NCBI GenBank assembly: GCA_902500125.1
Contig: GCA_902500125.1_4132.1
DNA length: 64,000 nt
Direction: 5' to 3' (one strand)
DNA from: Escherichia coli
GTDB taxonomy: Bacteria > Pseudomonadota > Gammaproteobacteria > Enterobacterales > Enterobacteriaceae
Numbering within the stretch: the stretch's first letter is position 1; every line of letters starts with the position of its first letter. Positions 3,942 through 50,561 of this stretch are shown here, one piece after another. The notes under the pieces were generated by a model. It was not told where the DNA came from. It saw nothing but the letters and a program-made list of their open reading frames with translations, and ran no database searches. Made by a program: the position numbers and the translations under genes.

Positions 3942-4210
3942 TGACTAAAGAAGAAATGAAATCTCGCTTAAGCGAACTGAAGAAAGAACGTAAACTAGTA
4001 CGTTTAGACTGGGATATCCTTAACAGGAAAGATGAGCAATCATATGCTAACTGGAGTTCTGATAAAGTACGAAATGACCGTTCTAAAGAAGATGCAAAGC
4101 AATTCATGGCATTATCGAAGCGACTATCATCTTTGAACAGTGAAATTACTGGCCTTCAGAAAGAGATTATTTCCATTCTTAAAGCGGAGATTGAATCACT
4201 CTATGAATAA
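3941..4210 (+). CDS. hypothetical charged coiled-coil-like protein
   Basis: track ORF; K/E-rich heptad-like translation. Confidence 0.5.
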   Translation: MTKEEMKSRLSELKKERKLVRLDWDILNRKDEQSYANWSSDKVRNDRSKEDAKQFMALSKRLSSLNSEITGLQKEIISILKAEIESLYE

Positions 4211-4499
4211 ACATGAAGTAATTCATTTTGATGATAAGATCTATATTCCAAATATTGATAGTACTGAAACATATTACCTAATCAATAAGATTATGGCTGA
4301 AACAAATACGTGTTGTCGTCAACAGCCAGGAAAATATGAGTTCAGTCAGACTATTGGTTATTACCGATATGATATGTTAGAATCATTTACAATTGATAAG
4401 TCTAAAGTTATTGACATTCTTGTACAGAATGGATATAATGAACAACGTGTAAATAATACAGATTTACCAGTTTCAAAAATTGTTCTTTCTAATAATTAA
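4203..4499 (+). CDS. hypothetical protein
   Basis: track ORF 4140..4499 trimmed to ATG (MNKHEV) overlapping upstream stop. Confidence 0.5.
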   Translation: MNKHEVIHFDDKIYIPNIDSTETYYLINKIMAETNTCCRQQPGKYEFSQTIGYYRYDMLESFTIDKSKVIDILVQNGYNEQRVNNTDLPVSKIVLSNN

Positions 4500-4502
4500 A
4501 AA

Positions 4503-4531
4503 TTGGACAAGAACAGATATTGTGATATAAT
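4503..4531 (+). promoter_or_regulatory. sigma70-type promoter with TG-extended -10 (TTGGAC-N17-TGnTATAAT)
   Basis: hexamers and spacing read directly; followed by hairpin plus T-run at ~4567-4586. Confidence 0.5.
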
Positions 4532-4614
4532 GTTTGTTATCGGCAGATATTAAAATGCAAACCATTCCTCAATGATGAGGGTTTTTCATAAAAAAGAAAT
4601 AAAAGGGTATTAAA

Positions 4615-4824
4615 ATGGCTAAAGAAACTAACGCACAAGTACTAGATATCACCGACTTCGACCGCACTGTGAACTATATTCAATTCCAGATTCATCAAGC
4701 AGAAGAAGCTCTAGCAGTATTCCACGGTACTGGTGCAAGGCCAATCCGTTTTGCTCACTTGATTGCATGGAAGAAAAGTCTTCAAGAAGAACTATCTGAA
4801 CTGCGTAAAGCAAATCGTAAGTAA
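4615..4824 (+). CDS. hypothetical small protein
   Basis: track ORF; RBS AAAGGG upstream; flanked by hairpins. Confidence 0.5.
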   Translation: MAKETNAQVLDITDFDRTVNYIQFQIHQAEEALAVFHGTGARPIRFAHLIAWKKSLQEELSELRKANRK

Positions 4825-4889
4825 TTTATCTTACCGCCTCATCATTTTTGATGGGGCATTTTAATCATATAAAGTAAGAGGATTTATAA

Positions 4890-5396
4890 ATGAGTGTTGA
4901 ATATTGGTTTTTGTTTGTGTGTATTGGTACACTTGCATTAATCACCATTGGATTGATTTTCAATACCATGATTAGTGGAAGTAAGTACTTTAAGACATTC
5001 CAACTTTTAATGTCTGCTATGCCATATAGTGCTGATGCCGAAAAAACAATTTCTCTAATTTTAGATAAGTTCGATGCAAATCTTTTGGTGGCTAAAATTT
5101 CAGCATGTGATACAAATATTTCATTTTACACTGTAGAGACAGAACAGAATGGGATTGATACACAATACTCAAATCCAGTAGTTGCTGAAATTTTCATTGG
5201 TTCAAAATATTATGCCTATGGATATGTAAGAAAATATTATTCAGAAGCAAAAGCTGAGTTGACGAAGAAGCGACCATCAATAAAAACTTTAAAACGCATC
5301 ATTGCGTTGGAAAAATCACTTCGTGGTCAAACAAGCGTTAATGAGCCACCATCAGTGATTAAATCCAAAAAAAGTAATGTTGTGGAGTTGGAGTAA
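4890..5396 (+). CDS. membrane-anchored hypothetical protein
   Basis: track ORF; N-terminal hydrophobic helix; RBS AAGAGGA. Confidence 0.55.
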   Translation: MSVEYWFLFVCIGTLALITIGLIFNTMISGSKYFKTFQLLMSAMPYSADAEKTISLILDKFDANLLVAKISACDTNISFYTVETEQNGIDTQYSNPVVAEIFIGSKYYAYGYVRKYYSEAKAELTKKRPSIKTLKRIIALEKSLRGQTSVNEPPSVIKSKKSNVVELE

Positions 5397-5686
5397 TGGA
5401 ACCAGAAAAATCAAGAAAAATTCTTATTGATGTCCAAACTAAATTATTAGATATTATGGAAATCATCAATGAGTTACCACAGGGTTATCAGTACAAAGTT
5501 CGTGAAATGTTATCTTGTGCCGAAACCGTTGTTTCTATGTACGATGATATTCAACATGGTATTATCCCTGATATTCTCAAAGATGACGTAAATATTAACA
5601 CTGAGGTAAAAGAAACTAAATTAGAATCAGAAACAGTATCTAATAAAAAAGTTCTAGACCTTAGTGGTATAAAAATTAATATCTAA
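5396..5686 (+). CDS. hypothetical protein
   Basis: track ORF; start overlaps upstream stop. Confidence 0.5.
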   Translation: MEPEKSRKILIDVQTKLLDIMEIINELPQGYQYKVREMLSCAETVVSMYDDIQHGIIPDILKDDVNINTEVKETKLESETVSNKKVLDLSGIKINI

Positions 5687-5874
5687 AAAACATCCAATAG
5701 GAGAAGTAATGAGTAATCAAAAAATCGACTTAGTAGTAAAACTTCAAGAGATTCAAGCACTAGCTAAAGACCTTGATAACACACGTGCATCAGTAGTTGA
5801 TTCACTATGTGCAACAATCCTGACTGTTTTTACAGATTACGAAAATAAATCTGATTAAACGTTACTTTGTAAAT

Positions 5875-5902
5875 ACCCAGTCAAGTACTGGGTATTTTTT
5901 TA
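5875..5902 (+). terminator. rho-independent terminator (ACCCAGT..ACTGGGT hairpin plus T-run)
   Basis: inverted repeat followed by T7 run read directly; approximate coordinates. Confidence 0.6.
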
Positions 5903-5912
5903 AGGAAATAAA

Positions 5913-6305
5913 ATGACTGAATCAGAACTACACGAAATGATAGATTTCATTTATGAAATGGTACAAGATAAAAATAACATCAATACAATTGCATCAGGCC
6001 CAAGACAAATTGGTAACCAAATAACATATTCTTTGTCCTTATGGTTACACCCGTGCATTAAGGTTGATTGTTTGTATTTCCGTCCTGATATTGATGCTTA
6101 TTATTTTGTCAATCATGATGCATTAATGAAACCACATAATCGTCCAGTTGATGATACCTTTGTGATACACCCATTTTACCTGGCTGATTCCGAAGAAGAT
6201 GAGTTTCAAAAGAACACAACGTTAAGCCCAGGTGAAATTTGCATCCCTTACGTACTTAAAGATAAAATGAATCACATCACAGAAGTTATGAAAACATGCT
6301 GGTAG
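5913..6305 (+). CDS. hypothetical protein, EExFQxSTV-motif family
   Basis: track ORF; SEEDEFQKNTTLS motif near C-terminus. Confidence 0.55.
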   Translation: MTESELHEMIDFIYEMVQDKNNINTIASGPRQIGNQITYSLSLWLHPCIKVDCLYFRPDIDAYYFVNHDALMKPHNRPVDDTFVIHPFYLADSEEDEFQKNTTLSPGEICIPYVLKDKMNHITEVMKTCW

Positions 6306-6353
6306 ATGCAATGAAACTCTGATATAATACAAATAATGATAATAGGAGGATAT

Positions 6354-6572
6354 ATGAAATTTATTGATTTTGATATTTCTAAGGCCAAAGAATTATTTGT
6401 AAGAAATGAAGTTTATGATATCATGTTACATAACGGCACTGTACAAGAAGATGTTGTGTTGTTTTCGTTTGATGGTGAAAATCTCGAAACTATATATAAA
6501 TTCAGCAACTTAGATGGTGACTTTTGGGAAACCAGTGCTGTTAAAATGTATAGAATTAAAAAGGAGCATTAA
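6354..6572 (+). CDS. hypothetical small protein
   Basis: track ORF 6336..6572 trimmed to ATG after AGGAGG RBS. Confidence 0.5.
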   Translation: MKFIDFDISKAKELFVRNEVYDIMLHNGTVQEDVVLFSFDGENLETIYKFSNLDGDFWETSAVKMYRIKKEH

Positions 6573-6573
6573 C

Positions 6574-7062
6574 ATGCCAATTCGTGGTGTACCAGAACCA
6601 TTAATGGAAGTTATTAAGCATGTTCGCATTGGAGATCGAGAAGTTAATCTTCGCCGTAATAACATTTATTACTTTAAAACTTCAGAAATGAGTTCTGTAC
6701 AGATTGTCATTGGTACATCTATTAAGATTACTCGTGTACTTGATGGTAGTACTGATTTCGTTGAATATAATGTACTTACTAACAAAGTAATACACACATA
6801 TAAATGGAGTGGGTATAAAACTATTAAGTATGAGTTTGATGTTGCTAGAACTGAAGAAGAACGATTTATGTTAAGTACTATCAATCCAGCAAACTACCCT
6901 GAACTTGATACATTTTTGCTAATTTTAAAACTGTATAATGAAGCAAATGGGAAAGCTAAGGAGTATGATAGAATTATGTATGAACGCAAAAAAGAACGTG
7001 CTCAGAAAAGTTATGATCTTTATGATAACCCATATGTAAAATATAATAAGGGGAGAAAATGA
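6574..7062 (+). CDS. hypothetical protein, EExFQxSTV-motif family
   Basis: track ORF 6514..7062 trimmed to ATG after AAGGAG RBS; TEEERFMLSTINP motif. Confidence 0.55.
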   Translation: MPIRGVPEPLMEVIKHVRIGDREVNLRRNNIYYFKTSEMSSVQIVIGTSIKITRVLDGSTDFVEYNVLTNKVIHTYKWSGYKTIKYEFDVARTEEERFMLSTINPANYPELDTFLLILKLYNEANGKAKEYDRIMYERKKERAQKSYDLYDNPYVKYNKGRK

Positions 7063-7463
7063 ATAACGAAGTTCAAATTATCATAACTCCACCTATACAA
7101 AGTCTTGATGTATCTATTAGTGATTTTTTAGAAAAATATTATGAATGGTTTAATAATGATAATACCATTTATAATCATTCATTACCAGATGGTTTCGTGG
7201 AGCTTATCGAATTAAATTCAAAATCACTATACTTCTGTGTTGAATACAATGATTATATGACAGATGAAGCTTATCGCTTTCGTTGTACATTGTATCCGAA
7301 TTATTTTTCAATAGGTTATAAAGATTACCAGTACTGTACCACTAACTATAGTGTTGAGGAAGAATTTCAGTACAATTTACTTTATCCTGATTTAGATTAT
7401 ACGATTGCAGTACTGTTGACTAAAATCATGGATTTTTATAAAGATAAATATAATGCAGCCTAA
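7059..7463 (+). CDS. hypothetical protein, EExFQxSTV-motif family
   Basis: track ORF; VEEEFQYNLLYP motif; ATGA overlap upstream. Confidence 0.55.
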   Translation: MNNEVQIIITPPIQSLDVSISDFLEKYYEWFNNDNTIYNHSLPDGFVELIELNSKSLYFCVEYNDYMTDEAYRFRCTLYPNYFSIGYKDYQYCTTNYSVEEEFQYNLLYPDLDYTIAVLLTKIMDFYKDKYNAA

Positions 7464-7638
7464 GACATTTGATGAGTGGTTTAATCTACACTATAATATA
7501 AATGCAGCAGATATATACTATTTTAAGCTTGAATTGTATATATCATTGCGTAACCCAATTGAGTACTATAACAACATTATCAATTGTGATGATTTTGGTA
7601 CATATTTTAGTATAGCCGTTATGGATATTAAGAGATGA
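7453..7638 (+). CDS. hypothetical small protein
   Basis: track ORF; overlaps neighbours. Confidence 0.4.
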   Translation: MQPKTFDEWFNLHYNINAADIYYFKLELYISLRNPIEYYNNIINCDDFGTYFSIAVMDIKR

Positions 7639-7814
7639 CACATGAAGAATGGATGGCAATGATGAAAAAACGTTATGACCAGTTTGGAAATGGATTTATT
7701 GATGGTCATTTCGATATTTTACGAGACAAATATAAGTTCGAATCATATGTACTAGATGAGAATGGAAATCGTTGGTTCATCTATGAGCTTGCGGTTAGAG
7801 ACAAAAAAATATAA
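7635..7814 (+). CDS. MTHEEWM-family mini-protein (59 aa)
   Basis: own translation from ATG overlapping upstream stop; MTHEEWMAMMKKRYDQFGNG..; paralogous to 7893, 8412, 9400, 9561, 9722. Confidence 0.55.
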   Translation: MTHEEWMAMMKKRYDQFGNGFIDGHFDILRDKYKFESYVLDENGNRWFIYELAVRDKKI

Positions 7815-7892
7815 TAACCTTTTCCATTGTCCATTGCAATGCTTTCTTTACAGAAGAATAAATGAAACACTTAATTGAACTGGATACATAAA

Positions 7893-8069
7893 ATGACACA
7901 TGAAGAATGGATAGAGTCACTAAAATATAAACATGATCATTTTGGATTTGGTATACGCCAAGGCCATTATGATGTTTTGAACGATAAAAAAACGTTCGAA
8001 TCATTGGTTTTGGACGAAGATTCCAACCACTGGTTCATCTACGAGCTTGCTATTAGAGATAAAAAATAG
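7893..8069 (+). CDS. MTHEEWM-family mini-protein
   Basis: track ORF 7875..8069 trimmed to conserved MTHEEW start. Confidence 0.55.
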   Translation: MTHEEWIESLKYKHDHFGFGIRQGHYDVLNDKKTFESLVLDEDSNHWFIYELAIRDKK

Positions 8070-8074
8070 TAAGA

Positions 8075-8410
<336 letters not shown>

Positions 8411-8411
8411 A

Positions 8412-8594
8412 ATGACACACGAAGAATGGATGTCCAAACAGCATAAAGAACATGACTGCTTTGGGAATGGCATTCGTCAGGTACATTATGATATATTAAG
8501 AGATGAAAATCTTTTCAGGTCATATGTTTTGGATACCAGAAAACCCTGGTTTATATGCGAACTGGCATTTAGAAAGTCAAATAATCAAAACTAA
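8412..8594 (+). CDS. MTHEEWM-family mini-protein
   Basis: track ORF 8394..8594 trimmed to MTHEEW start; upstream DNA near-identical to that before 7893. Confidence 0.55.
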   Translation: MTHEEWMSKQHKEHDCFGNGIRQVHYDILRDENLFRSYVLDTRKPWFICELAFRKSNNQN

Positions 8595-8610
8595 ACAAGG
8601 AATACAAAAA

Positions 8611-8829
8611 ATGGAAACAACTTTATTTGAAGTTATTCAATCATTAAAACCTGAAGATGAGGTTCAAGTACTACTACATGGTTATCGTGTAAAAGGTACT
8701 GTGGTTTTAGTCAATGATACAACATTGGTTATTACAGAAACAAACCCATATGATAGTAATCAACTTGCCAATATCCATATCGATATCACTGGAATTATTG
8801 GTGTCGGTGTATCTAAAACACTTGCATAA
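8611..8829 (+). CDS. hypothetical small protein
   Basis: track ORF 8503..8829 trimmed to ATG (METTLFEV) downstream of the previous gene. Confidence 0.45.
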   Translation: METTLFEVIQSLKPEDEVQVLLHGYRVKGTVVLVNDTTLVITETNPYDSNQLANIHIDITGIIGVGVSKTLA

Positions 8830-8882
8830 ATCATTAATTCATTATATAATGATTATCACTGGTTCTAGATGAGGATAATATT

Positions 8883-9155
8883 ATGCATTTTGAAAAATTC
8901 AACGTAAATCGTAACACACGCATTGAAGTTCTTTATGAAACTCAAGACACCATTAGTATTCGTACAAGTAGTGGGGATGTATATCATGACTGTACGATTG
9001 GCTGGGAACAGGGAAGAACGCGTAGTGCAGTATTTGATAATTATCGCTTTTATCAAGGAGACACTACGATTTGGCCTGAATACGTAGAAGATATTGCGTT
9101 TGAAGATGAACATAAAGATGAATTTATCAAATTTAATCCTCAAACTGAATCATAA
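8883..9155 (+). CDS. hypothetical protein
   Basis: track ORF; RBS GAGGA upstream. Confidence 0.55.
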   Translation: MHFEKFNVNRNTRIEVLYETQDTISIRTSSGDVYHDCTIGWEQGRTRSAVFDNYRFYQGDTTIWPEYVEDIAFEDEHKDEFIKFNPQTES

Positions 9156-9172
9156 ATAATGGGACATCACAT

Positions 9173-9288
<116 letters not shown>

Positions 9289-9292
9289 AAAT

Positions 9293-9394
<102 letters not shown>

Positions 9395-9399
9395 AAACC

Positions 9400-9560
<161 letters not shown>

Positions 9561-9564
<4 letters not shown>

Positions 9565-9721
9565 CACATGAAGAATGGATGAATGACATTAATTTTAGAT
9601 ATTCGGGTATCGGTAGATGGCTAAAGTATCATTGGGAATTCATTTCAGAGCCACATATGTATGATAAACTTATCAACGATCCAGCATATGAAATGTACTT
9701 AATTGAACTACTGGTACGAAT

Positions 9722-9725
<4 letters not shown>
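9561..9725 (+). CDS. MTHEEWM-family mini-protein (54 aa)
   Basis: own translation; ATGA overlap with previous paralog; near-duplicate of 9400. Confidence 0.5.
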
Positions 9726-9894
<169 letters not shown>

Positions 9895-9897
9895 AAG

Positions 9898-10311
<414 letters not shown>

Positions 10312-10368
10312 CTAAATAATTCAGTACTGAGGATATTAATATGTTTAAAGATGAACGTCCAGATTTGT

Positions 10369-10406
<38 letters not shown>

Positions 10407-10414
10407 GAATTCCA

Positions 10415-10750
10415 CAATCAGACGTATATGGTGTAAGTTACGTCGATGCAATCCAGAACAAGATCTCTGGTACTCTAGGAAGTGGTGAATGTTAACCTAG
10501 ACGGGTTTGATAATTGGACGATAGGCAATTATTACTTGACTAGCAGGTTTAAACTAGAGGTGACAGTCCTTCATCAAACTGGAAAACCGGATGGACTTTT
10601 ATTTAAAAGGGTAAGGCGTGGAAATATGTTTACAGAAGTTGCTTTTAGTAGCCTGTACGCCCCACGTCAAGGTAGCCGAAAGGTAAGTTAAAACGGGTGG
10701 TTATAAAGCTGAATTGACAGCGACGTTTAAAAGCGTCACCATCCATTTTT
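10415..10750 (+). ncRNA. candidate structured ncRNA of unknown class
   Basis: ~330 nt between promoter and T8 run; GC-richer than flanks; GNRA-like CCGAAAGG hairpin; only ORF has no convincing start. Confidence 0.35.
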
Positions 10751-10769
10751 TTTAATTAAAGTTGGTGAT

Positions 10770-11159
<390 letters not shown>

Positions 11160-11184
11160 TTTTCAGTACTGATATAATTAATTT

Positions 11185-11421
<237 letters not shown>

Positions 11422-11428
11422 CTAAATC

Positions 11429-11733
11429 GGGCCATTAGCTCACGGTGGTTAGAGCAAACGACTCATCGACAATGGTGACTTTCATCAGTAATGGTGATTG
11501 AAAAACTGGATGAATTCAGGGAAATCTTAACACGTAATGGTGATGACAATCCTGAGCCAAGCCCAATAAGCGTATTGGGAAGGTGCAGAGACTAGATGGT
11601 ACAGTACGATCTTACTGTGTAATACATCATTAGCGTCCGGCATCCCTATGGGATGATGATATAGTCCGTACTATAGTGAAAACTATAGATTATACGAATC
11701 GTTAGGTACTGTGTTCGACTCACAGATGGCTCA
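11429..11733 (+). tRNA. tRNA with CAT anticodon (Met or Ile2) interrupted by group I intron
   Basis: 5' half GGGCCAT-TA-GCTC..GAGC-A-AACGA-CTCAT; 3' half AA-TCGTT-AGGTA-CTGTG-TTCGACT-CACAG-ATGGCTC-A; all four stems pair only after removing ~230 nt from the anticodon loop. Confidence 0.7.
11467..11696 (+). ncRNA. group I intron in tRNA anticodon loop (no ORF)
   Basis: follows exon U, ends in G; core-like elements AATTCAGGGAAA (P), AATCCTGAGC (Q), CAGAGACTA (R), GATATAGTCC (S) with complementary P4/P7 strands. Confidence 0.65.
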
Positions 11734-11752
11734 CAAACTTTGAAATAAAATA

Positions 11753-12457
11753 ATGAAAATAAAATTAGAATATCCATACAGTAATGATTGGGAGAATGGG
11801 TATATACAGATAAACCCTGAAGGTAGAAGAACTGTAATACTTTATAATTCTCCAACTGATAGAAGCAGTACTCAATATGCCAGATATCTATTAGCAGTAC
11901 AAGAAGGTAGATATTTAACTGAGTCTGAAGAAGCAGACCACATTGATAATGATTTCACAAATGATGATTTGTCAAATTTGCAAATACTTCATGTTGATGA
12001 ACATCGTTATAAAACACATAAGAATGGTGTGCAAGCACGATATGATTCATTTGTATGTGCTTGTTGTAATATGGAATTTACCCGTAGGCATACTAAAGTG
12101 AAATCATATACAAAATATTGTAGTGTTGAGTGTTCACAAAAAATGGTCAAGCCTCCTTCTAATACAAAGGGTGGTGAAACATCTGTTGATTATGAAAAGG
12201 TAAAAGAATATATTAACCAAGGTTTATTAGATACTGAAATTGCTAAAATAATGAATATTAGTTCAGGTTCAGTACTGAATTATAGAACCAAAAATAATAT
12301 ACCATCTAAGAAATTTGCAAACGTAAAACGTTTAGAAGATAACATAGAAGATATCAAACAACGTTTGAATAATGGTGAGAAAAAAGTTAGTATATATGAA
12401 AGTTATGGTGCTTCCAAAAATGTGTTTGCTAGATTTTTGAAAAGACATGGCTTATAA
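11753..12457 (+). CDS. HNH homing endonuclease-like protein
   Basis: track ORF; EADHIDNDFTNDDLSNLQILHVDEHRYKTH HNH-type motif plus Cys-rich KYCSVECS; immediately downstream of intron-containing tRNA. Confidence 0.65.
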   Translation: MKIKLEYPYSNDWENGYIQINPEGRRTVILYNSPTDRSSTQYARYLLAVQEGRYLTESEEADHIDNDFTNDDLSNLQILHVDEHRYKTHKNGVQARYDSFVCACCNMEFTRRHTKVKSYTKYCSVECSQKMVKPPSNTKGGETSVDYEKVKEYINQGLLDTEIAKIMNISSGSVLNYRTKNNIPSKKFANVKRLEDNIEDIKQRLNNGEKKVSIYESYGASKNVFARFLKRHGL

Positions 12458-12465
12458 ATAATTAT

Positions 12466-12538
12466 GACTCTGTAGCACAATAGGTGGTGCGATTAACTGT
12501 TAATTAATTGGTTGGGGATTCGAGTTCCTCCAGAGTCG
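12466..12538 (+). tRNA. tRNA-Asn (anticodon GTT)
   Basis: acceptor GACTCTG/CAGAGTC, D-stem GCAC/GTGC, anticodon stem ATTAA/TTAAT with loop CTGTTAA, T-loop TTCGAGT. Confidence 0.8.
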
Positions 12539-12560
12539 CAAAAAACAACGAGAGGTATAC

Positions 12561-12818
<258 letters not shown>

Positions 12819-12826
12819 GAATTTAA

Positions 12827-13228
12827 ATGAAAAAGAATGACTTGATCAAAATGCTTCAAGAGATTGACGGCAATCCAGAGATTGTTATTTGGAATGGATA
12901 TGTCGATGATTATATGAACATCGAAAAAGGCTTGACTAAAATCACTCTAGTCAAAGAAACTGAACAGTTCCTTCTGGAAGCATTAGTGCACGAATGGTGC
13001 AAACGTAACAATACATTCGACATTCCAGAAGATCAACGAACTAAGATTGCAGAACAAGCTAAAAAACTTCATAAGAAACGTGAATACGATTTCCAGAACC
13101 CACATGTTACTGAAGACGAATTCAATCACTGGTACGGTAAAAAGAAATTGACAAAGTATGTCCTTTCACCTAAACTACGTGGTAAGACTTCACTTGGTGT
13201 ATTCAACGCCGCAGACTTAAACTACTAG
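12827..13228 (+). CDS. hypothetical protein (paralog of 13241..13456)
   Basis: track ORF; N-terminus similar to next ORF (DLIKxLQ..PE..I...DDY). Confidence 0.55.
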   Translation: MKKNDLIKMLQEIDGNPEIVIWNGYVDDYMNIEKGLTKITLVKETEQFLLEALVHEWCKRNNTFDIPEDQRTKIAEQAKKLHKKREYDFQNPHVTEDEFNHWYGKKKLTKYVLSPKLRGKTSLGVFNAADLNY

Positions 13229-13237
13229 CGGGTATTA

Positions 13238-13642
<405 letters not shown>

Positions 13643-13661
13643 AGAGGTACTTCGAGTATGC

Positions 13662-13787
<126 letters not shown>

Positions 13788-13789
13788 TA

Positions 13790-13876
<87 letters not shown>

Positions 13877-13931
13877 GACTGCCAAACAGCTTGAAGTACT
13901 TTGTAGTGCTGCACCTATGCCGACACTTGGC

Positions 13932-14041
<110 letters not shown>

Positions 14042-14045
14042 ATCT

Positions 14046-14116
14046 GGTTGATTAGTTAAATGGTATAACACGGATCTTGTAAGTCTGAGTCATTAGTTCG
14101 ATTCTAATATTGACCA
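14046..14116 (+). tRNA. tRNA-Thr (anticodon TGT)
   Basis: acceptor GGTTGAT/ATTGACC (two G-U), D-stem GTTA/TAAC, anticodon stem CGGAT/GTCTG with loop CTTGTAA, T-arm ATTAG-TTCGATT-CTAAT. Confidence 0.65.
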
Positions 14117-14181
14117 CAAATATATTCTTAGAAATAACATTTTTCTTGAAAATAAATACTCCATACTATATGGAGAACTAT

Positions 14182-14577
14182 ATGAAAGAAAAACGTTATT
14201 GTGCATGTTGTAAAATTGAATTGGTTCGAAAGGGTCAAACAAAATATTGTAGTGTTGCATGTCAACAAGAGCTACAATATCAACAGAAAGTTGATAAATG
14301 GCTTAACGGTGAACATCCAGGATATAAAGGTATTACTATACAGTTATGTCCATTTGTGAGAAGATATCTACATGAAACACGCGGAACTGCATGTGAAGAG
14401 TGTGGATGGGATAAACGTCATCCAACAGATGGTGCAGTACTGACAGAAGTTGAGCACATTGATGGTGATGCTACAAATAATGACCTACCAAATTTAAAAA
14501 TCCTTTGCCCTAATTGTCATTCGATGACACCAACATTCAGAGCAAGGAACAAGAACTCCGCAAGGAATCGTAAATAA
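14182..14577 (+). CDS. HNH endonuclease
   Basis: track ORF 14110..14577 trimmed to ATG after GGAGA RBS; Cys-rich N-terminus and EVEHIDGDATNNDLPNLKILCPNCH HNH motif. Confidence 0.7.
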   Translation: MKEKRYCACCKIELVRKGQTKYCSVACQQELQYQQKVDKWLNGEHPGYKGITIQLCPFVRRYLHETRGTACEECGWDKRHPTDGAVLTEVEHIDGDATNNDLPNLKILCPNCHSMTPTFRARNKNSARNRK

Positions 14578-14593
14578 TTTTTTAAGGTACAAT

Positions 14594-15010
14594 ATGACAT
14601 ACAACATTGTTAAAATGGTGAACTACGTATTAAAAAACAACGCATGGTCACTGCATGATGTACAATTAGAAGATATTGGTGAAGTTAGAGTTTTTTGCTA
14701 TGATGACGATTTGAACGAAACTACTGATTTGAGTAAATGTTTTAATATTTTTCTTGGTTATGAAATCAATAATCATTTTTATTCATTTGATGTGTATTTT
14801 GAACGAGTTAAAATCAGAATTGCTAATGTAAATAGTGATTATTATGACACTAGAATTGAATTGAATTTTGACGATATTGATACTGAAGAAAAATTCTTTC
14901 AGTACTGCCTCGTTAACAACACATTAGGATTAACATTTGATGACATTAGTGCTATCCTTAAAGTTCAAAGATTGATTCCAGAAGAGGTATTAAATCCGTT
15001 AAATGACTAG
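14594..15010 (+). CDS. hypothetical protein, EExFQxSTV-motif family
   Basis: track ORF; TEEKFFQYCLVNNTLGLTFDD motif. Confidence 0.55.
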   Translation: MTYNIVKMVNYVLKNNAWSLHDVQLEDIGEVRVFCYDDDLNETTDLSKCFNIFLGYEINNHFYSFDVYFERVKIRIANVNSDYYDTRIELNFDDIDTEEKFFQYCLVNNTLGLTFDDISAILKVQRLIPEEVLNPLND

Positions 15011-15368
15011 TCTAATAGTACGTATAATGCAAGATGTTTGTAATAACCTTTATACAGGCAATTTTGACGATCCGAACATAAAAATATTATGTTATGATGG
15101 TTTTACAATGGTACATCCAGCCTATTCAAATAATATCTACGTAGCATATACAGGTGAAAATCTATTATATCAATTTGATATATATAGTACAATGACAAAG
15201 ATAATTTTGGATGCATCTAAACCAGCAATCTTTATTGCTTCTCATGATTACCATTACACTGAAGAATCACTATTTCAGTACTCAATGATTAATGACATTG
15301 GTGGGTTGACATTGGATGAGGTTAATGCTATACTAGCTGTCTCACGTTTGGTTAAAACCCACAATTAG
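15003..15368 (+). CDS. hypothetical protein, EExFQxSTV-motif family
   Basis: track ORF; TEESLFQYSMINDIGGLTLDE motif; tandem paralog of 14594. Confidence 0.55.
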   Translation: MTSLIVRIMQDVCNNLYTGNFDDPNIKILCYDGFTMVHPAYSNNIYVAYTGENLLYQFDIYSTMTKIILDASKPAIFIASHDYHYTEESLFQYSMINDIGGLTLDEVNAILAVSRLVKTHN

Positions 15369-15377
15369 GAGATTCAT

Positions 15378-15569
15378 ATGTTCTGGAATTTATTATGCTT
15401 GTTTGGTCGTACATTGGTTCTTGCTATTATTCATACACCTGGTATTCGTAATTATGTTTCTTATGAATTTAAGAAAAATTATCACAACAATACTGAAGTT
15501 CGTACAACTAAGATGTGCAAAGACTTCAAGGTAGATGTTCCACCATTCAAGAAGTACGAGGATGAATAA
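15378..15569 (+). CDS. small membrane protein
   Basis: track ORF; hydrophobic N-terminus; RBS AGGAGA. Confidence 0.5.
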   Translation: MFWNLLCLFGRTLVLAIIHTPGIRNYVSYEFKKNYHNNTEVRTTKMCKDFKVDVPPFKKYEDE

Positions 15570-15853
15570 TGGAATTCATTGTTGCACCTGATGAACTTAA
15601 AACATTCACGTTCAGAGATAATAACAATTATCCTTATACAAATCATTCATTGAATTCATTACATGTTATTGCAATCATTGCATCTGAATACAGGGATAAT
15701 CCATGTATTGATTTTAAAACCACTGATGGCGAATATACATGGGTGATCCCAAAAGATAAATATAGTTATCAAGGGGCAGTAGAAATTCGTGACTCGATTC
15801 TAAAACAAATCGAAGATGGAAATACTCATCCTAAACTAAACACTCAGTACTGA
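15569..15853 (+). CDS. hypothetical protein
   Basis: track ORF; ATGA-type overlap upstream. Confidence 0.5.
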   Translation: MEFIVAPDELKTFTFRDNNNYPYTNHSLNSLHVIAIIASEYRDNPCIDFKTTDGEYTWVIPKDKYSYQGAVEIRDSILKQIEDGNTHPKLNTQY

Positions 15854-15866
15854 AATCGTTTAACCC

Positions 15867-15921
15867 GATAGCTTCTAGTCAGTACTGATTCCTCCTTATG
15901 TATAGAAGCTATCACTTTTTT
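15867..15921 (+). terminator. hairpin (GATAGCTTCTA..TAGAAGCTATC) plus T-run
   Basis: 11-bp inverted repeat with large loop followed by T5-6; approximate coordinates. Confidence 0.45.
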
Positions 15922-16009
15922 ACGTATAATGATATTACCCTCAAATTCATTATATTCGTTACCCTCTAACAGTATCTTTTTATTCCTCTTGGATGCTGTA
16001 ATTTAGAAG

Positions 16010-16069
16010 TTGACTTTTTAACTTCTACTGTGTTATACTTAAGGCTGATTCGATGAATCGGCCTTTTTT
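16010..16069 (+). promoter_or_regulatory. promoter (TTGACT-N17-TGnTATACT) followed by leader hairpin plus T-run
   Basis: hexamers at ~16010-16039; GGCTGATTC/GAATCGGCC hairpin and T6 at ~16043-16069, just upstream of ORF 16079. Confidence 0.45.
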
Positions 16070-16078
16070 CTTATATAG

Positions 16079-16507
16079 GTGAATGCAATGAGTTATTTGT
16101 TTACTTTAATTGATAAGTATGTTGACATTGTATACCGTCAAGTTTGTAGTGATACGTTTGAAACAAAAAACCCAATTAGAGATGGCATTTTTGATGTTGT
16201 CGTTGGATCATTTTTGAATGGATACACAGAGACATTATACAACAGTAATAATATTTTTATTTCAGTTCAATCCAGACATACATCAGACTATGCTGTTAGC
16301 ATTGATATTTGGGAAAATAATATAGAAATAGATATAACGGAACATACTAACATTCATGTTGATGATACATTTAATCAATTAACTGAAGAAATGTACTTGC
16401 AGTTGAATTTTGTACATGATCTTACAAATATCAGTTATGATACATTAAGGAAAATATGTTTTCTTAGTGGGGTGATCCGTAGTAATATGAGTAAGGATGG
16501 GAAGTGA
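16079..16507 (+). CDS. hypothetical protein, EExFQxSTV-motif family (divergent)
   Basis: track ORF; LTEEMYLQLNFVHDL motif. Confidence 0.5.
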   Translation: MNAMSYLFTLIDKYVDIVYRQVCSDTFETKNPIRDGIFDVVVGSFLNGYTETLYNSNNIFISVQSRHTSDYAVSIDIWENNIEIDITEHTNIHVDDTFNQLTEEMYLQLNFVHDLTNISYDTLRKICFLSGVIRSNMSKDGK

Positions 16508-16925
16508 AATGTTAAAAATTCCACCTAAGTCGTTAACACATCTTATTGAATGTGGTGTAATATTTTCCGAAGGTGATACCTCATCATACACATTGGTCGA
16601 TGAACCTTATAATTTTTCATACCAATCTTATAAAAATAATTCTAAAATTTCTTGTAGATATGCTGAAAACATATTAATAGATGTTTCGTTACATAATGTT
16701 CCGAAATTTTACATTGATATCTTTGGTGATTCTTTGACAATTCGAACATATGATTATTTTATTAATAAAGACCTCTTGAGTCTTCCAATTGAACATGATA
16801 CTATAGATTCAGAGATGTTCTTTCAGCTATCAACAGTTTACGATTTACAGGGTTTAACTGTTGAGCAGTTGAATGGAATATTTGAGATTTCACGAAACAT
16901 ACGAAGCAGGAATAAAAATGTCTAA
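16497..16925 (+). CDS. hypothetical protein, EExFQxSTV-motif family
   Basis: track ORF; DSEMFFQLSTVYDLQGLTVEQ motif. Confidence 0.55.
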   Translation: MGSEMLKIPPKSLTHLIECGVIFSEGDTSSYTLVDEPYNFSYQSYKNNSKISCRYAENILIDVSLHNVPKFYIDIFGDSLTIRTYDYFINKDLLSLPIEHDTIDSEMFFQLSTVYDLQGLTVEQLNGIFEISRNIRSRNKNV

Positions 16926-17328
16926 TATTTTAAATGAAAAAACAGTTGATGTTGTTATTGGTGTTCTTAACACCGCAACTTCATTTCAGAAGAAACACAG
17001 TGTTGTATACTTTGGTGAAGATTGTTGGCTGAACTATACTAATAATTCGTTTATAATTCGTGTAGAGGCTGATGATATTGGATTAACCGTTCAGGTAGGA
17101 TGTGCCAAAACTGACAAACAAATCACTGTCATTGTTGATAAACTTACGTCTTCTTTTTATGATAGTATAGATGATTGTGAACACTATAGTTCAACATTTT
17201 ATGATACAGAAGAAGAACATTTTATGGAAAGTACTGTTCAAGAGTTAGCTATTCCATATAAGCTAATGAAAGCCGTGAGTGATTTAATTTTAAAATATAA
17301 AAAAATAGGAGTTACTAATGCAATTTAA
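16918..17328 (+). CDS. hypothetical protein, EExFQxSTV-motif family
   Basis: track ORF 16873..17328 trimmed to ATG (MSNILNEK); TEEEHFMESTVQE motif. Confidence 0.55.
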   Translation: MSNILNEKTVDVVIGVLNTATSFQKKHSVVYFGEDCWLNYTNNSFIIRVEADDIGLTVQVGCAKTDKQITVIVDKLTSSFYDSIDDCEHYSSTFYDTEEEHFMESTVQELAIPYKLMKAVSDLILKYKKIGVTNAI

Positions 17329-19867: not shown

Positions 19868-19896
19868 AAAGCCACTACAATGTAGTGGCTTTTTTA
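19868..19896. terminator. bidirectional rho-independent terminator (GCCACTACA..TGTAGTGGC)
   Basis: perfect 9-bp stem flanked by A-run and T-run between convergent genes. Confidence 0.7.
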
Positions 19897-24568: not shown

Positions 24569-24642
24569 AAGTATTTGACATAACAAATAATATGGAGTAC
24601 AATGTGCTCCTAATTTAATTATCAGCTAGAAAGGAAAACATT

Positions 24643-35093: not shown

Positions 35094-35285
35094 ATGTTGA
35101 TTTATCAAAGTGATAATATTCGTGTTATGCAGCATCCCTACTTACAAATCTTTGATGTGCAGCAGTATATGGAAGGTGATGACCCAAGAACCTATGGTCG
35201 TAAGTATGATTACTTCACTGTAAAGCAGTGTAATAATATTAACGAAGTACGACAATTAGTTCAAGAACTTCAAAACAAAGGTTGA
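35094..35285 (+). CDS. hypothetical small protein
   Basis: track ORF 35040..35285 trimmed to ATG after AAGGA RBS. Confidence 0.45.
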   Translation: MLIYQSDNIRVMQHPYLQIFDVQQYMEGDDPRTYGRKYDYFTVKQCNNINEVRQLVQELQNKG

Positions 35286-35310
35286 CTTCGGTCAGCCTTT
35301 TTTGTTATAA
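35280..35310 (+). terminator. terminator hairpin GGTTGACTTCGGTCAGCC plus T6, overlapping a promoter (TTGACT in stem, TATAAT 18 bp downstream)
   Basis: hairpin, T-run and hexamers read directly; module recurs 5 times in window. Confidence 0.6.
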
Positions 35311-35339
35311 TTCTCTTAATAAATTAGAGGATTTTAATT

Positions 35340-38520: not shown

Positions 38521-38553
38521 GGTTGACTAAGGTCAGCCCTTTGTTGTATCATA
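38521..38553 (+). terminator. terminator/promoter module (GGTTGACTAAGGTCAGCC variant)
   Basis: hairpin plus T-rich tail; -10-like TATCAT 18 bp after TTGACT. Confidence 0.5.
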
Positions 38554-38703
38554 ACTTCTCAATATAACTGAGGTATCATATATGCAAGGTTTGAAATTTG
38601 TAGTTGCTGCCCTAATCGCTGCTGTTGTAGTGGGTACAGTATGTTATTCAATTGACACCTATATCAATACACCTAGTGTTGAACAAACCAAATAAGGGAT
38701 ATC

Positions 38704-38967
38704 ATGGCTGAAACATTATCACTATATGCGTTAGTACTGTTATTTGTCGGATTTCTTCCCGCACTCATTACAGCCATTCGTGTTGTTAAACATGAAGCTG
38801 CATTGATTGTATGTAGTATTGGGTCGAACATTCTATTGTATTTCTTTTTGACAAATACTATTGTACTGTTTGCTTTCTTTATCATGATTCTGTGGGTACT
38901 TGTAATTCTCGGATTCTTCATTTGGTCATTGGTTGATCCTAAGAAAAAATCAGGAGAAGTGAAATGA
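38704..38967 (+). CDS. multi-pass small membrane protein
   Basis: track ORF. Confidence 0.5.
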   Translation: MAETLSLYALVLLFVGFLPALITAIRVVKHEAALIVCSIGSNILLYFFLTNTIVLFAFFIMILWVLVILGFFIWSLVDPKKKSGEVK

Positions 38968-39260
38968 AATTAATTATAGCAATGATAATGTGTTTGGCTT
39001 TCCCTGTACTGGCTACTCCTAATCTGGACTGCACACTGTTGCGTTCAGATGGTGACACACTTGAAATCAACACATATGAACTCTTTGGTCCAAGTGTAGT
39101 GGAGAATGAAACCACCTACAATTTCAAAGCTATTGACTTTGAAGGTAATGTTCCAGTACTAACTACAATGACTATTGACAAAACTACTTTACTCGGACGA
39201 ATCACCACACAACGCGGAGAAAGTAAAACATTCACAGCGAAAGCTGACTGTAACTACTAA
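38964..39260 (+). CDS. small secreted protein
   Basis: track ORF; signal-peptide-like N-terminus ..FPVLA-TPN. Confidence 0.5.
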   Translation: MKLIIAMIMCLAFPVLATPNLDCTLLRSDGDTLEINTYELFGPSVVENETTYNFKAIDFEGNVPVLTTMTIDKTTLLGRITTQRGESKTFTAKADCNY

Positions 39261-39282
39261 TGGTATAGTACAGTGAAAATAG

Positions 39283-39312
39283 GGTTGACTTCGGTCAACC
39301 TTTATATATAAT
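39283..39312 (+). terminator. terminator/promoter module (GGTTGACTTCGGTCAACC)
   Basis: hairpin with TTGACT in stem; TATAAT 16 bp downstream. Confidence 0.55.
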
Positions 39313-39883
39313 GGAAGAAATAAACATGGAACGTTGGAAATTAATTCCTGATTATGACTATTCAATTTCTGATCATGGAAGAGTAAGAAACGAACAAACT
39401 GGATATATAAGTTGTGGATTTAAAAATAAAGATGGGTATGTGAAGGTCGATTTGTATCGCAATTCTGTGAAAAATAGAAAGGCGATTCATCGACTAGTAG
39501 CTGAAGCATTTTTACCACCACCCACACAGAAACAGTTACAGTGGGCGAGTAGAACAAAGAAAAAAGTTGTTCACATAAACCATAAAGATTGTAATAGAAG
39601 TAACAATCACTATTTGAATTTGGAATGGAACACAGCATCTGAAAACGTACTATATTCTTATTCACATGGTAACGCAACAACTAATCGTGGTGCTGCTGTG
39701 TTGACATGGGAAATTGTAAGAGAAATAAGAAAAGATTATAATGATAATTATAATGATGTGATAGAATATGCACGAGAAAATTGTAATAAATACCGTGTAT
39801 GTAAAAAAAACAATACGTCGTATTTTATACAATCAAACATGGATAGAGGATTAAAAATATGCCACAAGATAATGGGGATATGA
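39311..39883 (+). CDS. HNH homing endonuclease-like protein
   Basis: track ORF; N-terminal W..IPDYDYSISDHGRVRN and AIHRLVAEAF motifs typical of phage HNH/NUMOD-type endonucleases (recall-based). Confidence 0.55.
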   Translation: MEEINMERWKLIPDYDYSISDHGRVRNEQTGYISCGFKNKDGYVKVDLYRNSVKNRKAIHRLVAEAFLPPPTQKQLQWASRTKKKVVHINHKDCNRSNNHYLNLEWNTASENVLYSYSHGNATTNRGAAVLTWEIVREIRKDYNDNYNDVIEYARENCNKYRVCKKNNTSYFIQSNMDRGLKICHKIMGI

Positions 39884-41118
39884 AACATCGTAATGGTGGA
39901 CTAGTACAACACTCGGATAAATGGGCCGACCGAAATCGTCGCAAAAATAGTTATCAAGCAGGACAAGGTTCACGTGGTTCCAGAAACCAAGGAACGGGAC
40001 TTGCTGGTAAGGCAAACGCAGAAGCAGGTGAAGTTAAGAGTACTGAGAACATGACTGAGCTAGAAAAGCTACGTTATGTTAATTCATTGGGACTTCTTAA
40101 TGCTACACAAAAACAACGTCTAGCTGATATGGAACGTGAAGAAAAAGAAAAGTCTGCTCCTGCGAAAGAAGAACCAAAACAAGAAGCACCAAAGGCGGTT
40201 AACCCTGTCAAAGAACTGTCTGATAAGTTAGGTAAGATTTTTGCTAATAAACCACAACTTATCCAAGGTATTGTGAAAGAATTGCAATCTGTACCTAAAG
40301 AAGAATTAAAAGTCAAAGCACAAGCTGTACTTGATGCAATGAGTGGAAATACCAGTACTGAACCAACTGAAGTATTCAGTACTATAATGCGTGCACTTGA
40401 AGGTACGCAACAAGGTGATGTGCCTGCACAAGAGGAAGTAAGTCTTGAAAGCGTACTTAAAACATTTGATAGTATTGGTAAAGAAGACCGTGCTAATGCT
40501 CAACAAGTTAAGAATGTACTAGCTAAGTTAGAAAACCGTCTGGAAGGTAAAGACGATAAGATTAAATTAGTATCTGATGCAGTTAACGATGCACTTAAAT
40601 CTTATGTACAAGGTGAAAAGAGTCGTTTTGTAACTGCAATGGATGCTGCATTCAATACTATGAAAAAGTATGAAGCTGATCATGGTGAGAAGGTTACACG
40701 AGATGGTTATCTGATGCGTGATGATGAAGAAGGTGCAGTAGAACAGAATGATGTTCATTCAGACGAAGAAATTGATGACATGGAAGCTGAACTGTCACAA
40801 GACCGCCAAATGACTGAAAAATCCCATAACGAACTACAGAAATTAATGCAATGGGTTGCAGATGTTGGTGAAAAAGCTGGTGCTGATAAGAAGAGTATAA
40901 ACCGAAATCTTAGTTGGATTAAAGATAAAGTTGGTAACAACGCTCGTAAACTACAAAAAGCGTGGACTGATGTAGTGAATGGTGCTGTTGACATTGATGT
41001 TGAATCCGGTGAGGCATATGATTATGCATTGACTACACTTGATGACTCTTTCCGTGATTACGAAAATGGAAATGTAACTCCTTGGGAAAAGGATATCATG
41101 AGCAAATACGGTAAATGA
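39859..41118 (+). CDS. hypothetical charged protein (419 aa)
   Basis: track ORF; Gly/Ser/Arg-rich N-terminus then K/E-rich region; paralogous segment to 38130 ORF. Confidence 0.6.
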   Translation: MPQDNGDMKHRNGGLVQHSDKWADRNRRKNSYQAGQGSRGSRNQGTGLAGKANAEAGEVKSTENMTELEKLRYVNSLGLLNATQKQRLADMEREEKEKSAPAKEEPKQEAPKAVNPVKELSDKLGKIFANKPQLIQGIVKELQSVPKEELKVKAQAVLDAMSGNTSTEPTEVFSTIMRALEGTQQGDVPAQEEVSLESVLKTFDSIGKEDRANAQQVKNVLAKLENRLEGKDDKIKLVSDAVNDALKSYVQGEKSRFVTAMDAAFNTMKKYEADHGEKVTRDGYLMRDDEEGAVEQNDVHSDEEIDDMEAELSQDRQMTEKSHNELQKLMQWVADVGEKAGADKKSINRNLSWIKDKVGNNARKLQKAWTDVVNGAVDIDVESGEAYDYALTTLDDSFRDYENGNVTPWEKDIMSKYGK

Positions 41119-41127
41119 TAAAACAAA

Positions 41128-41158
41128 AGGTTGACTTCGGTCAGCCTTTTTTGTTATG
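41128..41158 (+). terminator. terminator/promoter module (GGTTGACTTCGGTCAGCC plus T6)
   Basis: identical hairpin to 35280 copy; TATGAT 18 bp after TTGACT. Confidence 0.6.
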
Positions 41159-41188
41159 ATGTTGGTATTAACTACAGAGGATAAAGTA

Positions 41189-46030: not shown

Positions 46031-46041
46031 AATAAAAAAAG

Positions 46042-46072
46042 GGTTGACTTAGGTCGGCCCTTTTGCTATTAT
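46042..46072 (+). terminator. terminator/promoter module (GGTTGACTTAGGTCGGCC variant)
   Basis: hairpin plus T-rich tail; TATTAT 17 bp after TTGACT. Confidence 0.5.
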
Positions 46073-49381: not shown

Positions 49382-49423
49382 TAAAAAATCCAGTACTATT
49401 AAGTACTGGATGTATAAGGAGTT

Positions 49424-50490: not shown

Positions 50491-50561
50491 TGTATCCTCC
50501 AAATGTAAATCGTTATTATATTTAGGACAAAAAAATGCCAGTACAAAATACTGGCTTTATT
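50491..50561 (-). promoter_or_regulatory. terminator/-10-only promoter/RBS cassette (variant)
   Basis: hairpin GCCAGTATTTTGTACTGGC, T-run, TAAATATAAT box and GGAGG before ATG. Confidence 0.45.

Follow-up and report, generated by a model that had tools for sequence, protein, structure and literature searches.

Two unrelated promoter-proximal hairpins in an Asteriusvirus jumbo coliphage: a putative terminator/promoter junction and a conserved leader RNA

Genomic setting of the two hairpins

The present analysis concerns two short leaders on the + strand of a 64,000-nucleotide stretch of DNA, hereafter the window (contig GCA_902500125.1_4132.1 of assembly GCA_902500125.1, deposited as Escherichia coli), in which a strong promoter is followed by a hairpin and a T-run ahead of a gene: site 1 (4503-4586), which leads to a gene for a 69-aa protein, and site 2 (16010-16069), which leads to a gene starting at 16088. 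The original prediction had treated the two as one recurrent arrangement, either read through under the control of antitermination or serving to stabilise the 5' end of the mRNA. Promoter, hairpin and T-run upstream of the ribosome-binding site were indeed found at both positions, but the two sites are unrelated elements rather than one phenomenon, and neither looks like an antitermination switch.

The window covers 64 kb of a genome of ~350 kb and contains 137 crude open reading frames (ORFs). Positions 4000-17000 match Asteriusvirus jumbo coliphages (SP27, PBECO4, slurp01, 121Q, G17 and others) at 96-98% identity, in 5-8 pieces that are separated by indels and cover 77-87% of the query; by this match, the window originates from an Asteriusvirus (PBECO4/121Q-like, Rak2-related) jumbo coliphage. 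This region is AT-rich (34% GC). Small ORFs on the + strand, tRNAs and numerous sigma70-type promoters close to the consensus crowd it, which is what one would expect of an early region. An Rfam search of the whole window returned tRNAs and a group I intron only, with no match at site 1 or site 2, and Pfam and PHROGs searches with the proteins flanking both sites returned families of unknown function only. No transcriptome or start-site study of Asteriusvirus and Rak2-like phages was found in the literature, the paper on phage CBB giving promoter and terminator predictions only.

Anatomy and conservation of site 2

The site 2 promoter (TTGACT-18-TGtTATACT, 16010-16039, + strand) matches the consensus at 10 of 12 positions and carries the additional TG, with its -10 hexamer TATACT at 16034-16039. 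Directly behind it lies a hairpin, here called hairpin C (AAGGCTGATTC-gat-GAATCGGCCTT, 16041-16065, 5' arm at 16041-16051), with a GC-containing stem of 9-11 bp that closes a loop of 3 nt and runs directly into a U6 tract; the T-run extends to 16069, and the element as a whole (16041-16071, + strand) has the form of an intrinsic terminator abutting the -10. It folds at -14.2 kcal/mol (z -4.8), and none of 200 shuffled sequences folded as well. The downstream gene (16088-16507, + strand, phrog_35192) starts at ATG 16088, preceded by the Shine-Dalgarno sequence AGGTGA, or alternatively at the in-frame GTG 16079.

The spacer 15854-16087 was aligned with that of eight diverged Asteriusviruses. The promoter core is kept in all eight, TGTTATACTTA being invariant and the -35 TTGAC retained; automatic alignments shift the latter in A4 and UE-S1. 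Stem and U-run of hairpin C are nearly invariant in these relatives, the loop varies freely between 3 and 8 nt, and the stem keeps a constant distance of 2 nt from the -10 (1 nt in JNE01). The stem changes comprise one compensatory pair (U-A to A-U, JNE01) and a G.U to A-U replacement in ph0011, and 98.8% of alignment cells are paired, against 32-52% in slid controls calculated over three hairpins together. A scan of IMG/VR for further variants of site 2 yielded one contig only, which is probably 121Q itself. Hairpin C is annotated as a 'terminator' in G17 (by ARNOLD) and in UE-S1, and its GC-containing stem, short loop and U-run, all of them conserved, are those of an intrinsic terminator.

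E. coli RNA polymerase initiates transcription ~6-9 nt after the -10, preferring a pyrimidine at -1 and a purine at +1. The start sites of both leaders are predicted from this geometry. For site 2, the start should fall at about 16045-16048, inside the 5' arm of hairpin C, and most likely at G16047 because of the pyrimidine(-1)/purine(+1) preference. An RNA beginning at 16047 retains a 5-bp stem only (-3.1 kcal/mol, z -0.3), with GGCC between this remnant and the U-run; from 16044, an improbable start, -9.1 kcal/mol would remain. With the -10 reaching to 16039 and the stem starting at 16041, the promoter's own RNA would not hold the full terminator, which would leave nothing to antiterminate.

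Most likely, hairpin C serves the transcription unit upstream as its terminator and sits tightly against the next promoter. RNAs initiated upstream, at the promoter 15306-15334, would run through two small genes and a 218-nt structured, CCUC-rich spacer, and hairpin C with its U6 (16041-16071) would end transcription arriving from that side. The promoter 16010-16039 would then restart transcription within the 5' arm of the hairpin, so that its own mRNA, carrying a remnant of at most 5-7 bp, would not be terminated. In this way, one short DNA segment would insulate the downstream genes from read-through and re-initiate transcription. The alternative of read-through or stabilisation, as originally posed, was incomplete, since it omitted the terminator of upstream transcription, which is the best fit for site 2.

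Comparable elements, termed promoter-early stem-loops (PeSLs), have been described by the Krisch laboratory in the T4-like phages RB49/phi1, T4/PST and KVP40/nt-1, where strong sigma70 promoters are fused to stem-loops interpreted as terminators of upstream transcription; they form sequence-conserved motifs of about 100 bp that recur in many copies in hyperplastic regions and are located at indel breakpoints, the formation of mini-circles is a further feature, and in one subclass the stem-loop lies just downstream of the -10 and before the start site (Arbiol et al., 2010, PMC2839356; Comeau et al., 2014, PMC4122927).

The structured spacer upstream of hairpin C

The spacer 15854-16071 contains three further + strand hairpins. 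Hairpin A (15867-15913; -17.2 kcal/mol, z -4.6) has an 11-12 bp stem and a loop with CAGTACTG and UUCCUCCUU; it shows an A-T to G-C compensatory change in A4, recognised by eye where the automatic alignment misplaced that phage. Its T-run is not conserved, being weak or absent in relatives, so that upstream transcripts plausibly reach hairpin C; it is left unmarked in the annotations of both G17 and UE-S1. Hairpin B (15969-15999, loop UUAUUCCUCUU) has three pairs changed on both sides, and hairpin P (16004-16027; -8.3 kcal/mol), which overlaps the -35 of the site 2 promoter, is represented by GGTATTGA/TCAATGCC in A4. As a + strand RNA the 218-nt spacer folds at -59.5 kcal/mol, compared with -31 for its shuffles (z -7.6), and the - strand reaches z -4.4. 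It also outlasts its flanking genes: JNE01 and Turkey5 match at 15844-16079 only, with the flanking genes beyond blastn detection. The part 15854-16003 is the densest CCTC stretch of the window (four copies in 150 nt where 0.15 are expected, P about 2e-5). The motifs concerned (UUCCUCCUU, ACCCUCA, ACCCUCUAA and UUCCUCUU), all of them Shine-Dalgarno-complementary, are each placed in a loop or a single-stranded part of a conserved hairpin. Small ORFs annotated within the spacer in 121Q and G17 were rejected as coding, their frame not being conserved.

Such a spacer might instead give rise to a separate small RNA (~15937-16071), or to the processed 3' end of the upstream operon, with hairpin C as its terminator and the mRNA promoter merely overlapping its 3' part. 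That the spacer is conserved where its neighbours have diverged, folds far better than its shuffles on both strands and displays the highest CCTC density of the window in its loops is what such an RNA would lead one to expect; a hairpin with a U6 tail is a typical small-RNA 3' end, and a TATAAT follows hairpin A and its T-run as in the composite repeat family described below. This internal TATAAT, however, has no convincing -35 and may just be an arm of another hairpin, ph0011 lacks hairpin A together with all CCTC motifs, and Rfam gave no match; on balance we regard a separate RNA as unlikely.

The leader of the 69-aa gene at site 1

Site 1 begins with a sigma70-type promoter with an extended -10 (TGGACA-16-TGaTATAAT, 4504-4531, + strand; 11 of 12 consensus positions plus TG). 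Its GTGATATAAT is invariant in nine aligned phages (Asteriusvirus, 7t3, RaK2 and Hallingskeid), and more distant genera possess other -10 variants. The transcript is predicted to open with a small hairpin (hairpin 1, UAUC-GGCA-GAUA, 4538-4549, + strand), located 0-2 nt from the predicted start, with the conserved box UUAAAAUGC behind it. In the window, hairpin 1 comprises just 3-4 bp. No other part of the leader is as conserved in sequence: hairpin 1 recurs in other genera as a nearly invariant CATCGACGGATG with TAAAACG, and each of its four pairs shows a compensatory change in at least one phage.

The hairpin originally singled out (hairpin 2, TCCTCA-atga-TGAGGG, 4566-4581, + strand) lies further downstream and occupies a fixed place in 16 of 16 Rak2-like phages from at least four genera, with stems of unrelated sequence: CCUCA/UGAGG, CUCUCAA/UUGAGAG, GUCUC/GAGAC, CAUUCAA/UUGAAUG, GCGUUCAA/UUGAACGC, GUACUUA/UAAGUAC and others. 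This count comes from per-sequence hairpin extraction for twelve phages and from reading by eye for the other four, as MAFFT with RNAalifold misaligned the hairpin owing to variation in loop length. The description of both hairpins as stable holds for hairpin C but not for hairpin 2, which folds at -6.2 kcal/mol (z -0.9) and was equalled by 35 of 200 shuffles. The T-run behind it (TTTTT, 4582-4586, + strand) is clade-specific and unconserved: U4-6 directly follows the stem in the window clade, CBB, GAP32 and Yen9-03, with U5-6 in these four, and in Serratia BF, and the run is broken (UUCUAU-type) in A4, JNE01, 7t3, RaK2, Hallingskeid, EJP2 and XbC2. The 16 representatives nevertheless share a common leader plan of promoter, hairpin 1, hairpin 2, a U-rich and then an A-rich stretch, AAGGG and ATGGCUAA. 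In the window, the Shine-Dalgarno AAGGG lies at 4603-4607 and the ATG at 4615. An upstream ORF beginning at the loop AUG was considered and rejected as coding, neither its length nor its frame being conserved.

The gene itself (4615-4824, + strand, phrog_15704) is conserved and occurs in 71 phage records from nine host genera, spanning Asterius-, Alcyoneus-, Mimas- and Eneladusvirus, with the invariant protein core TDFDRTVNYIQFQ...FHGT. Its AlphaFold2 model (predicted local distance difference test score, pLDDT, 79) is a plain two-helix hairpin, and a Foldseek search of this model against PDB returned nothing below E = 1. The gene is closed by an intrinsic terminator (4836-4857, + strand; -15.1 kcal/mol, z -6.4) that covaries across genera. 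In the near-identical phage G17, ARNOLD called this terminator and not the leader hairpin; the former has the attributes of an intrinsic terminator, and the latter combines a weak stem with an unconserved U-run. Since the T-run is unconserved, the hairpin weak and the ARNOLD call missing, a termination switch is unlikely as the conserved function of this leader, whose conserved property, as judged from the alignments, is RNA structure and not termination.

Site 1 would thus be the conserved leader of a monocistronic early gene, with a function that is most likely post-transcriptional: hairpin 1 may contribute to mRNA stabilisation, and hairpin 2 to stability, translational control or control by a protein, with weak attenuation at hairpin 2 possible in the clade of the window and some others. 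Autoregulation by the 69-aa protein is a speculation. No further CAATGA-loop hairpins and no further copies of the hairpin 1 motif turned up in leaders of the window, and site 1 is consequently regarded as a one-gene element. Separately, a perfect 12/12 consensus promoter (TTGACA-17-TATAAT, 4411-4439) precedes the site 1 promoter by 93 nt, within the 3' end of ORF 4140-4499, and may act as a tandem promoter of the same leader.

Two sites, not one pattern

A hairpin with a T-run starting 0-60 nt after the -10 was found at sites 1 and 2 only among ~40 strong + strand promoters of the window, compared with 1.13 cases expected when the 30 terminator-like sites are placed at random (P = 0.32); most strong promoters lead straight to a ribosome-binding site. 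The proposed recurrent pattern is therefore not enriched, and the two sites share no common sequence and have no further copies within the window. What exceeds expectation is a hairpin with T-run overlapping the promoter itself (5 observed against 0.84, P = 0.0014). The earlier description of hairpins within ~30 nt of their promoters also conceals a difference in geometry, since hairpin C opens 2 nt past the -10, ahead of any position at which transcription could feasibly start, whereas hairpin 2 opens 35 nt past it, within the transcript.

Figures of this kind are what chance would give in AT-rich intergenic DNA full of promoters and terminators, and the bidirectional terminator 19868-19892 likewise has a spurious -10-like match next to it. 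That the co-occurrence is fortuitous and non-functional is nonetheless hardly credible, given that both hairpins, together with the spacing of site 2 to its -10, have been conserved with compensatory changes over wide divergence. Each hairpin is, on this comparative evidence, real in evolutionary terms.

A role of both hairpins as promoter-proximal attenuators that require a phage or host antitermination factor, of the lambda Q or N kind, is very improbable. Both do precede the ribosome-binding site and carry T-runs, hairpin C is a strong terminator by its fold, and U4-6 follows the site 1 hairpin in several lineages; but a hairpin 2 nt after the -10 would have its full stem excluded from the promoter's own RNA, the site 1 hairpin is weak, with an unconserved T-run and no ARNOLD call, and the arrangement is not enriched among promoters. 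The antitermination reading is thus unsupported.

We likewise think it quite unlikely that both hairpins protect mRNA against 5'-end-dependent decay in the manner of the ompA leader. Strong early promoters feeding short leaders would suit such a role, as would the cross-genus conservation of the hairpin at 4538-4549 on the predicted +1 and the 5 bp of hairpin C with which the site 2 mRNA would begin. Against it, the flagged site 1 hairpin lies ~28 nt from the predicted start, the site 2 remnant amounts to merely -3.1 kcal/mol, and a stabiliser has no need of the invariant U-run of site 2. The suggestion of 5' stabilisers survives in part, such a role being plausible only for hairpin 1 of site 1, which had not been flagged.

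The explanation that best accounts for these observations, to which we assign a probability of roughly 0.55, is a joint one that takes site 2 as a compact PeSL-like junction of terminator and promoter and site 1 as a conserved leader with a post-transcriptional role. Both would be further examples of kinds of element already known. Several points weigh against it. The start inside hairpin C is predicted from the general geometry of RNA polymerase, and the covariation of this hairpin is thin, 8 of its 11 pairs never varying. By sequence, hairpin C does not belong to the PeSL-like repeat family described below, and comparison with SP27, BAU_ELP-22 and UE-S1 revealed no indel breakpoint at 4503-4586 or 16010-16069, so that two defining features of PeSLs are missing. 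A terminator placed behind a promoter gives no protection from occlusion by read-through polymerases and is less obviously useful than a design that overlaps the -35. With regard to site 1, the stem is immediately followed by U4-6 in roughly half of the lineages, where partial termination is possible, and the 69-aa protein gave no functional clue.

If the model of site 2 is correct, a jumbo phage packs insulation and re-initiation into ~60 bp, with the start site within a terminator, which would be useful for operon annotation in genomes of ~350 kb and as a compact synthetic part. The site 1 leader suggests that a small gene shared by all Rak2-like genera is under tight and probably post-transcriptional control, which makes this gene a candidate for functional study. 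None of the findings alters the basic understanding of transcription control.

A PeSL-like composite repeat family associated with cassette indels

Elsewhere in the window, a family of composite elements with the plan AAAGG-TTGACT-TCGG-TCAGCC-TTTTTT-G-TTATAAT (GGTTGACTTCGGTCAGCC, T-run, TGTTATAAT) carries its -35 inside a terminator hairpin and uses the T-run as promoter spacer. The family numbers five + strand copies in the window and eight in the homologous region of G17, all annotated there as terminators. The copy at 35277-35311 (hairpin AAAGG-TTGACT-TCGG-TCAGCC-TTT containing the -35, with TGTTATAAT as -10) is one of those annotated as a terminator in G17. The copy at 38521-38538 (GGTTGACTAAGGTCAGCC) lies ~85 nt upstream of DNA specific to the window, and this insert (38625-39910), headed by a copy of its own at 39281-39312, carries an ORF (MERWKLIPDYDYSISDHG...) that resembles an HNH endonuclease as judged by eye only. 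At 41125-41160, G17 and SP27 possess an extra cassette of ~1.04 kb; the single window copy (41105-41152 in the alignment) aligns to two copies that flank this cassette, which comprises three ORFs in G17 and two in SP27. Finally, homology to G17 stops exactly at the -10 of the copy at 46037-46072.

Overall, the cassette indels relative to G17, SP27 and UE-S1 start or end at copies of this family. Breakpoints coincide with the copies at 41125-41160 and 46037-46072 and fall near those at 38521 and 39281, and the GGTTGACTTCGGTCAGCC family is repeated in the manner of PeSLs, whereas sites 1 and 2 are unique in the window. According to these alignments, the family represents PeSL-like modular shuffling in a Rak2-like jumbo phage. 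It extends terminator/promoter cassettes of the PeSL type from T4-like phages to the Rak2-like jumbo group, with gain and loss of cassettes directly seen at the copies. The likeness of hairpin C to this family is limited to the outer stem and tail (AAGGCTGA..TCGGCCTTTTTT as compared with AAGGTTGA..TCAGCCTTTTTT). The possibility that hairpin C is a decayed copy with a promoter of its own was considered and rejected as functional: the -35-like and -10-like sequences are 21 nt apart, and the start would follow the Shine-Dalgarno sequence.

A broader interpretation would join this shuffling, as PeSL-type shuffling outside the T4-like group, to a conserved structured RNA at 15854-16071, either a small RNA or a processed 3' untranslated region, whose four CCUC motifs could act as an anti-Shine-Dalgarno regulator or sponge in early infection and whose 3' end would contain the nested mRNA promoter, with its start inside the terminator of that RNA. 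We hold this combination to be possible, though doubtful.

As a separate observation, the hairpins GGAGTATATATAATACTCC (2019-2037) and GGAGTACAATGTGCTCC (24594-24610) overlap the -10 boxes of the strong promoters 2004-2032 and 24575-24603, respectively, an arrangement that resembles another PeSL subclass.

Other repeats and mobile features of the window

The commonest 8-mer of the window is the 8-bp palindrome CAGTACTG, with 47 copies against 0.6 expected (for instance at 9913, 10322, 10392, 11164, 15845, 15880, 29214, 43871 and 59878). Its core AGTACT occurs 202 times against 21.8 expected (9.3x), the next 6-bp palindrome reaching 2.4x only. Copies of CAGTACTG are found in all reading frames and in intergenic DNA, and in at least six strong promoters the palindrome fills the spacer up to the -10 (ttgactaaatagttCAGTACTGtataat). 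SP27 and G17 carry it at a comparable density, and short loci of other Rak2-like genera are likewise rich in AGTACT. Operator, modification site and recombination signal are all conceivable roles for the palindrome.

A second terminator family, GCCAGTAC-loop-GTACTGGC, occurs at 49388-49411, 50537-50555, 51813-51831, 53054-53072, 56614-56636, 57427-57445 and 58623-58642, in a region of - strand genes, and is made from halves of the CAGTACTG motif. T-runs follow it on the - strand; T-rich + strand tails are present in three copies, and some copies may be bidirectional.

The group I intron (11374-11688, Rfam RF00028, 99 bits) precedes an ORF of 234 aa (11753-12457). The block 11278-12559 is mostly unmatched in the compared regions of SP27, BAU_ELP-22 and UE-S1, the matches of BAU_ELP-22 and UE-S1 reaching the first 50-80 nt of the intron match (to 11456 and 11423, respectively), and it is likely a mobile-intron insertion. 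Three tandem 54-aa ORFs (165-nt units) at 9400-9886 correspond to two in the alignments with SP27, BAU_ELP-22 and UE-S1, which is a copy-number polymorphism of the tandem unit. A repeated promoter element, cttgactaaata(g/a)ttCAGTACTG, is present at 10304-10329 and 10378-10406 and also at 9899-9926; BAU_ELP-22 contains an insert of ~280 nt, both ends of which align to the copy 10304-10329, which suggests recombination at repeated promoters.

Comparison with known regulatory systems

In the lambda PR'-tR'/Q and N/nut systems, the terminator lies far enough behind +1 to be transcribed in full, and a short RNA builds up. Sites 1 and 2 likewise have a promoter and then a nearby terminator-like hairpin ahead of genes, but site 2, if its -10 is TATACT 16034-16039, leaves no room for a complete terminator in its own transcript; at site 1 this would be possible. 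No qut- or nut-like element and no antiterminator gene turned up in the window, although no dedicated search was made.

Early and middle mRNAs of T4 are governed by translational operators (the gp32, gp43 and RegA targets). Site 1 is similar in that the leader of its small conserved gene holds a small hairpin whose conserved apex reads UCAAUGA in four lineages; it differs in that no binding protein is known for it, the apex is not found in all genera and the hairpin stands clear of the Shine-Dalgarno sequence. The E. coli ompA leader is a 5'-terminal stem-loop that stabilises its mRNA. Hairpin 1 of site 1 is alike in that a strongly transcribed mRNA is predicted to begin with it, but it has only 3-4 bp, and the flagged hairpin 2 is internal, ~28 nt into the transcript.

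With canonical intrinsic terminators, hairpin C shares its stem, loop, U6, conservation and the ARNOLD call in relatives, and it departs from them in sitting directly behind a promoter -10; the site 1 hairpin has neither the stability nor the conserved U-run of this class.

The closest parallel is that with PeSLs, of which no description for Rak2-like phages turned up in the searchable literature. The differences are that sites 1 and 2 are single-copy and away from indel breakpoints in the relatives compared, that the site 1 hairpin (-6.2 kcal/mol) lies well inside its transcript, 35 nt after the -10, and that the host is a Rak2-like jumbo phage in which the terminator activity of site 2 is predicted from sequence alone. 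The likeness resides in the near-consensus sigma70-type early promoters of both sites, with an extended -10 invariant in the aligned relatives, in their location among small early genes of unknown function and, at site 2, in a hairpin that begins directly behind the -10 and ahead of the predicted start, as in the described subclass; for the GGTTGACTTCGGTCAGCC family, it includes the repeat nature and the association with cassette indels as well. Without claiming full membership for it, we conclude that site 2 probably works like a PeSL.

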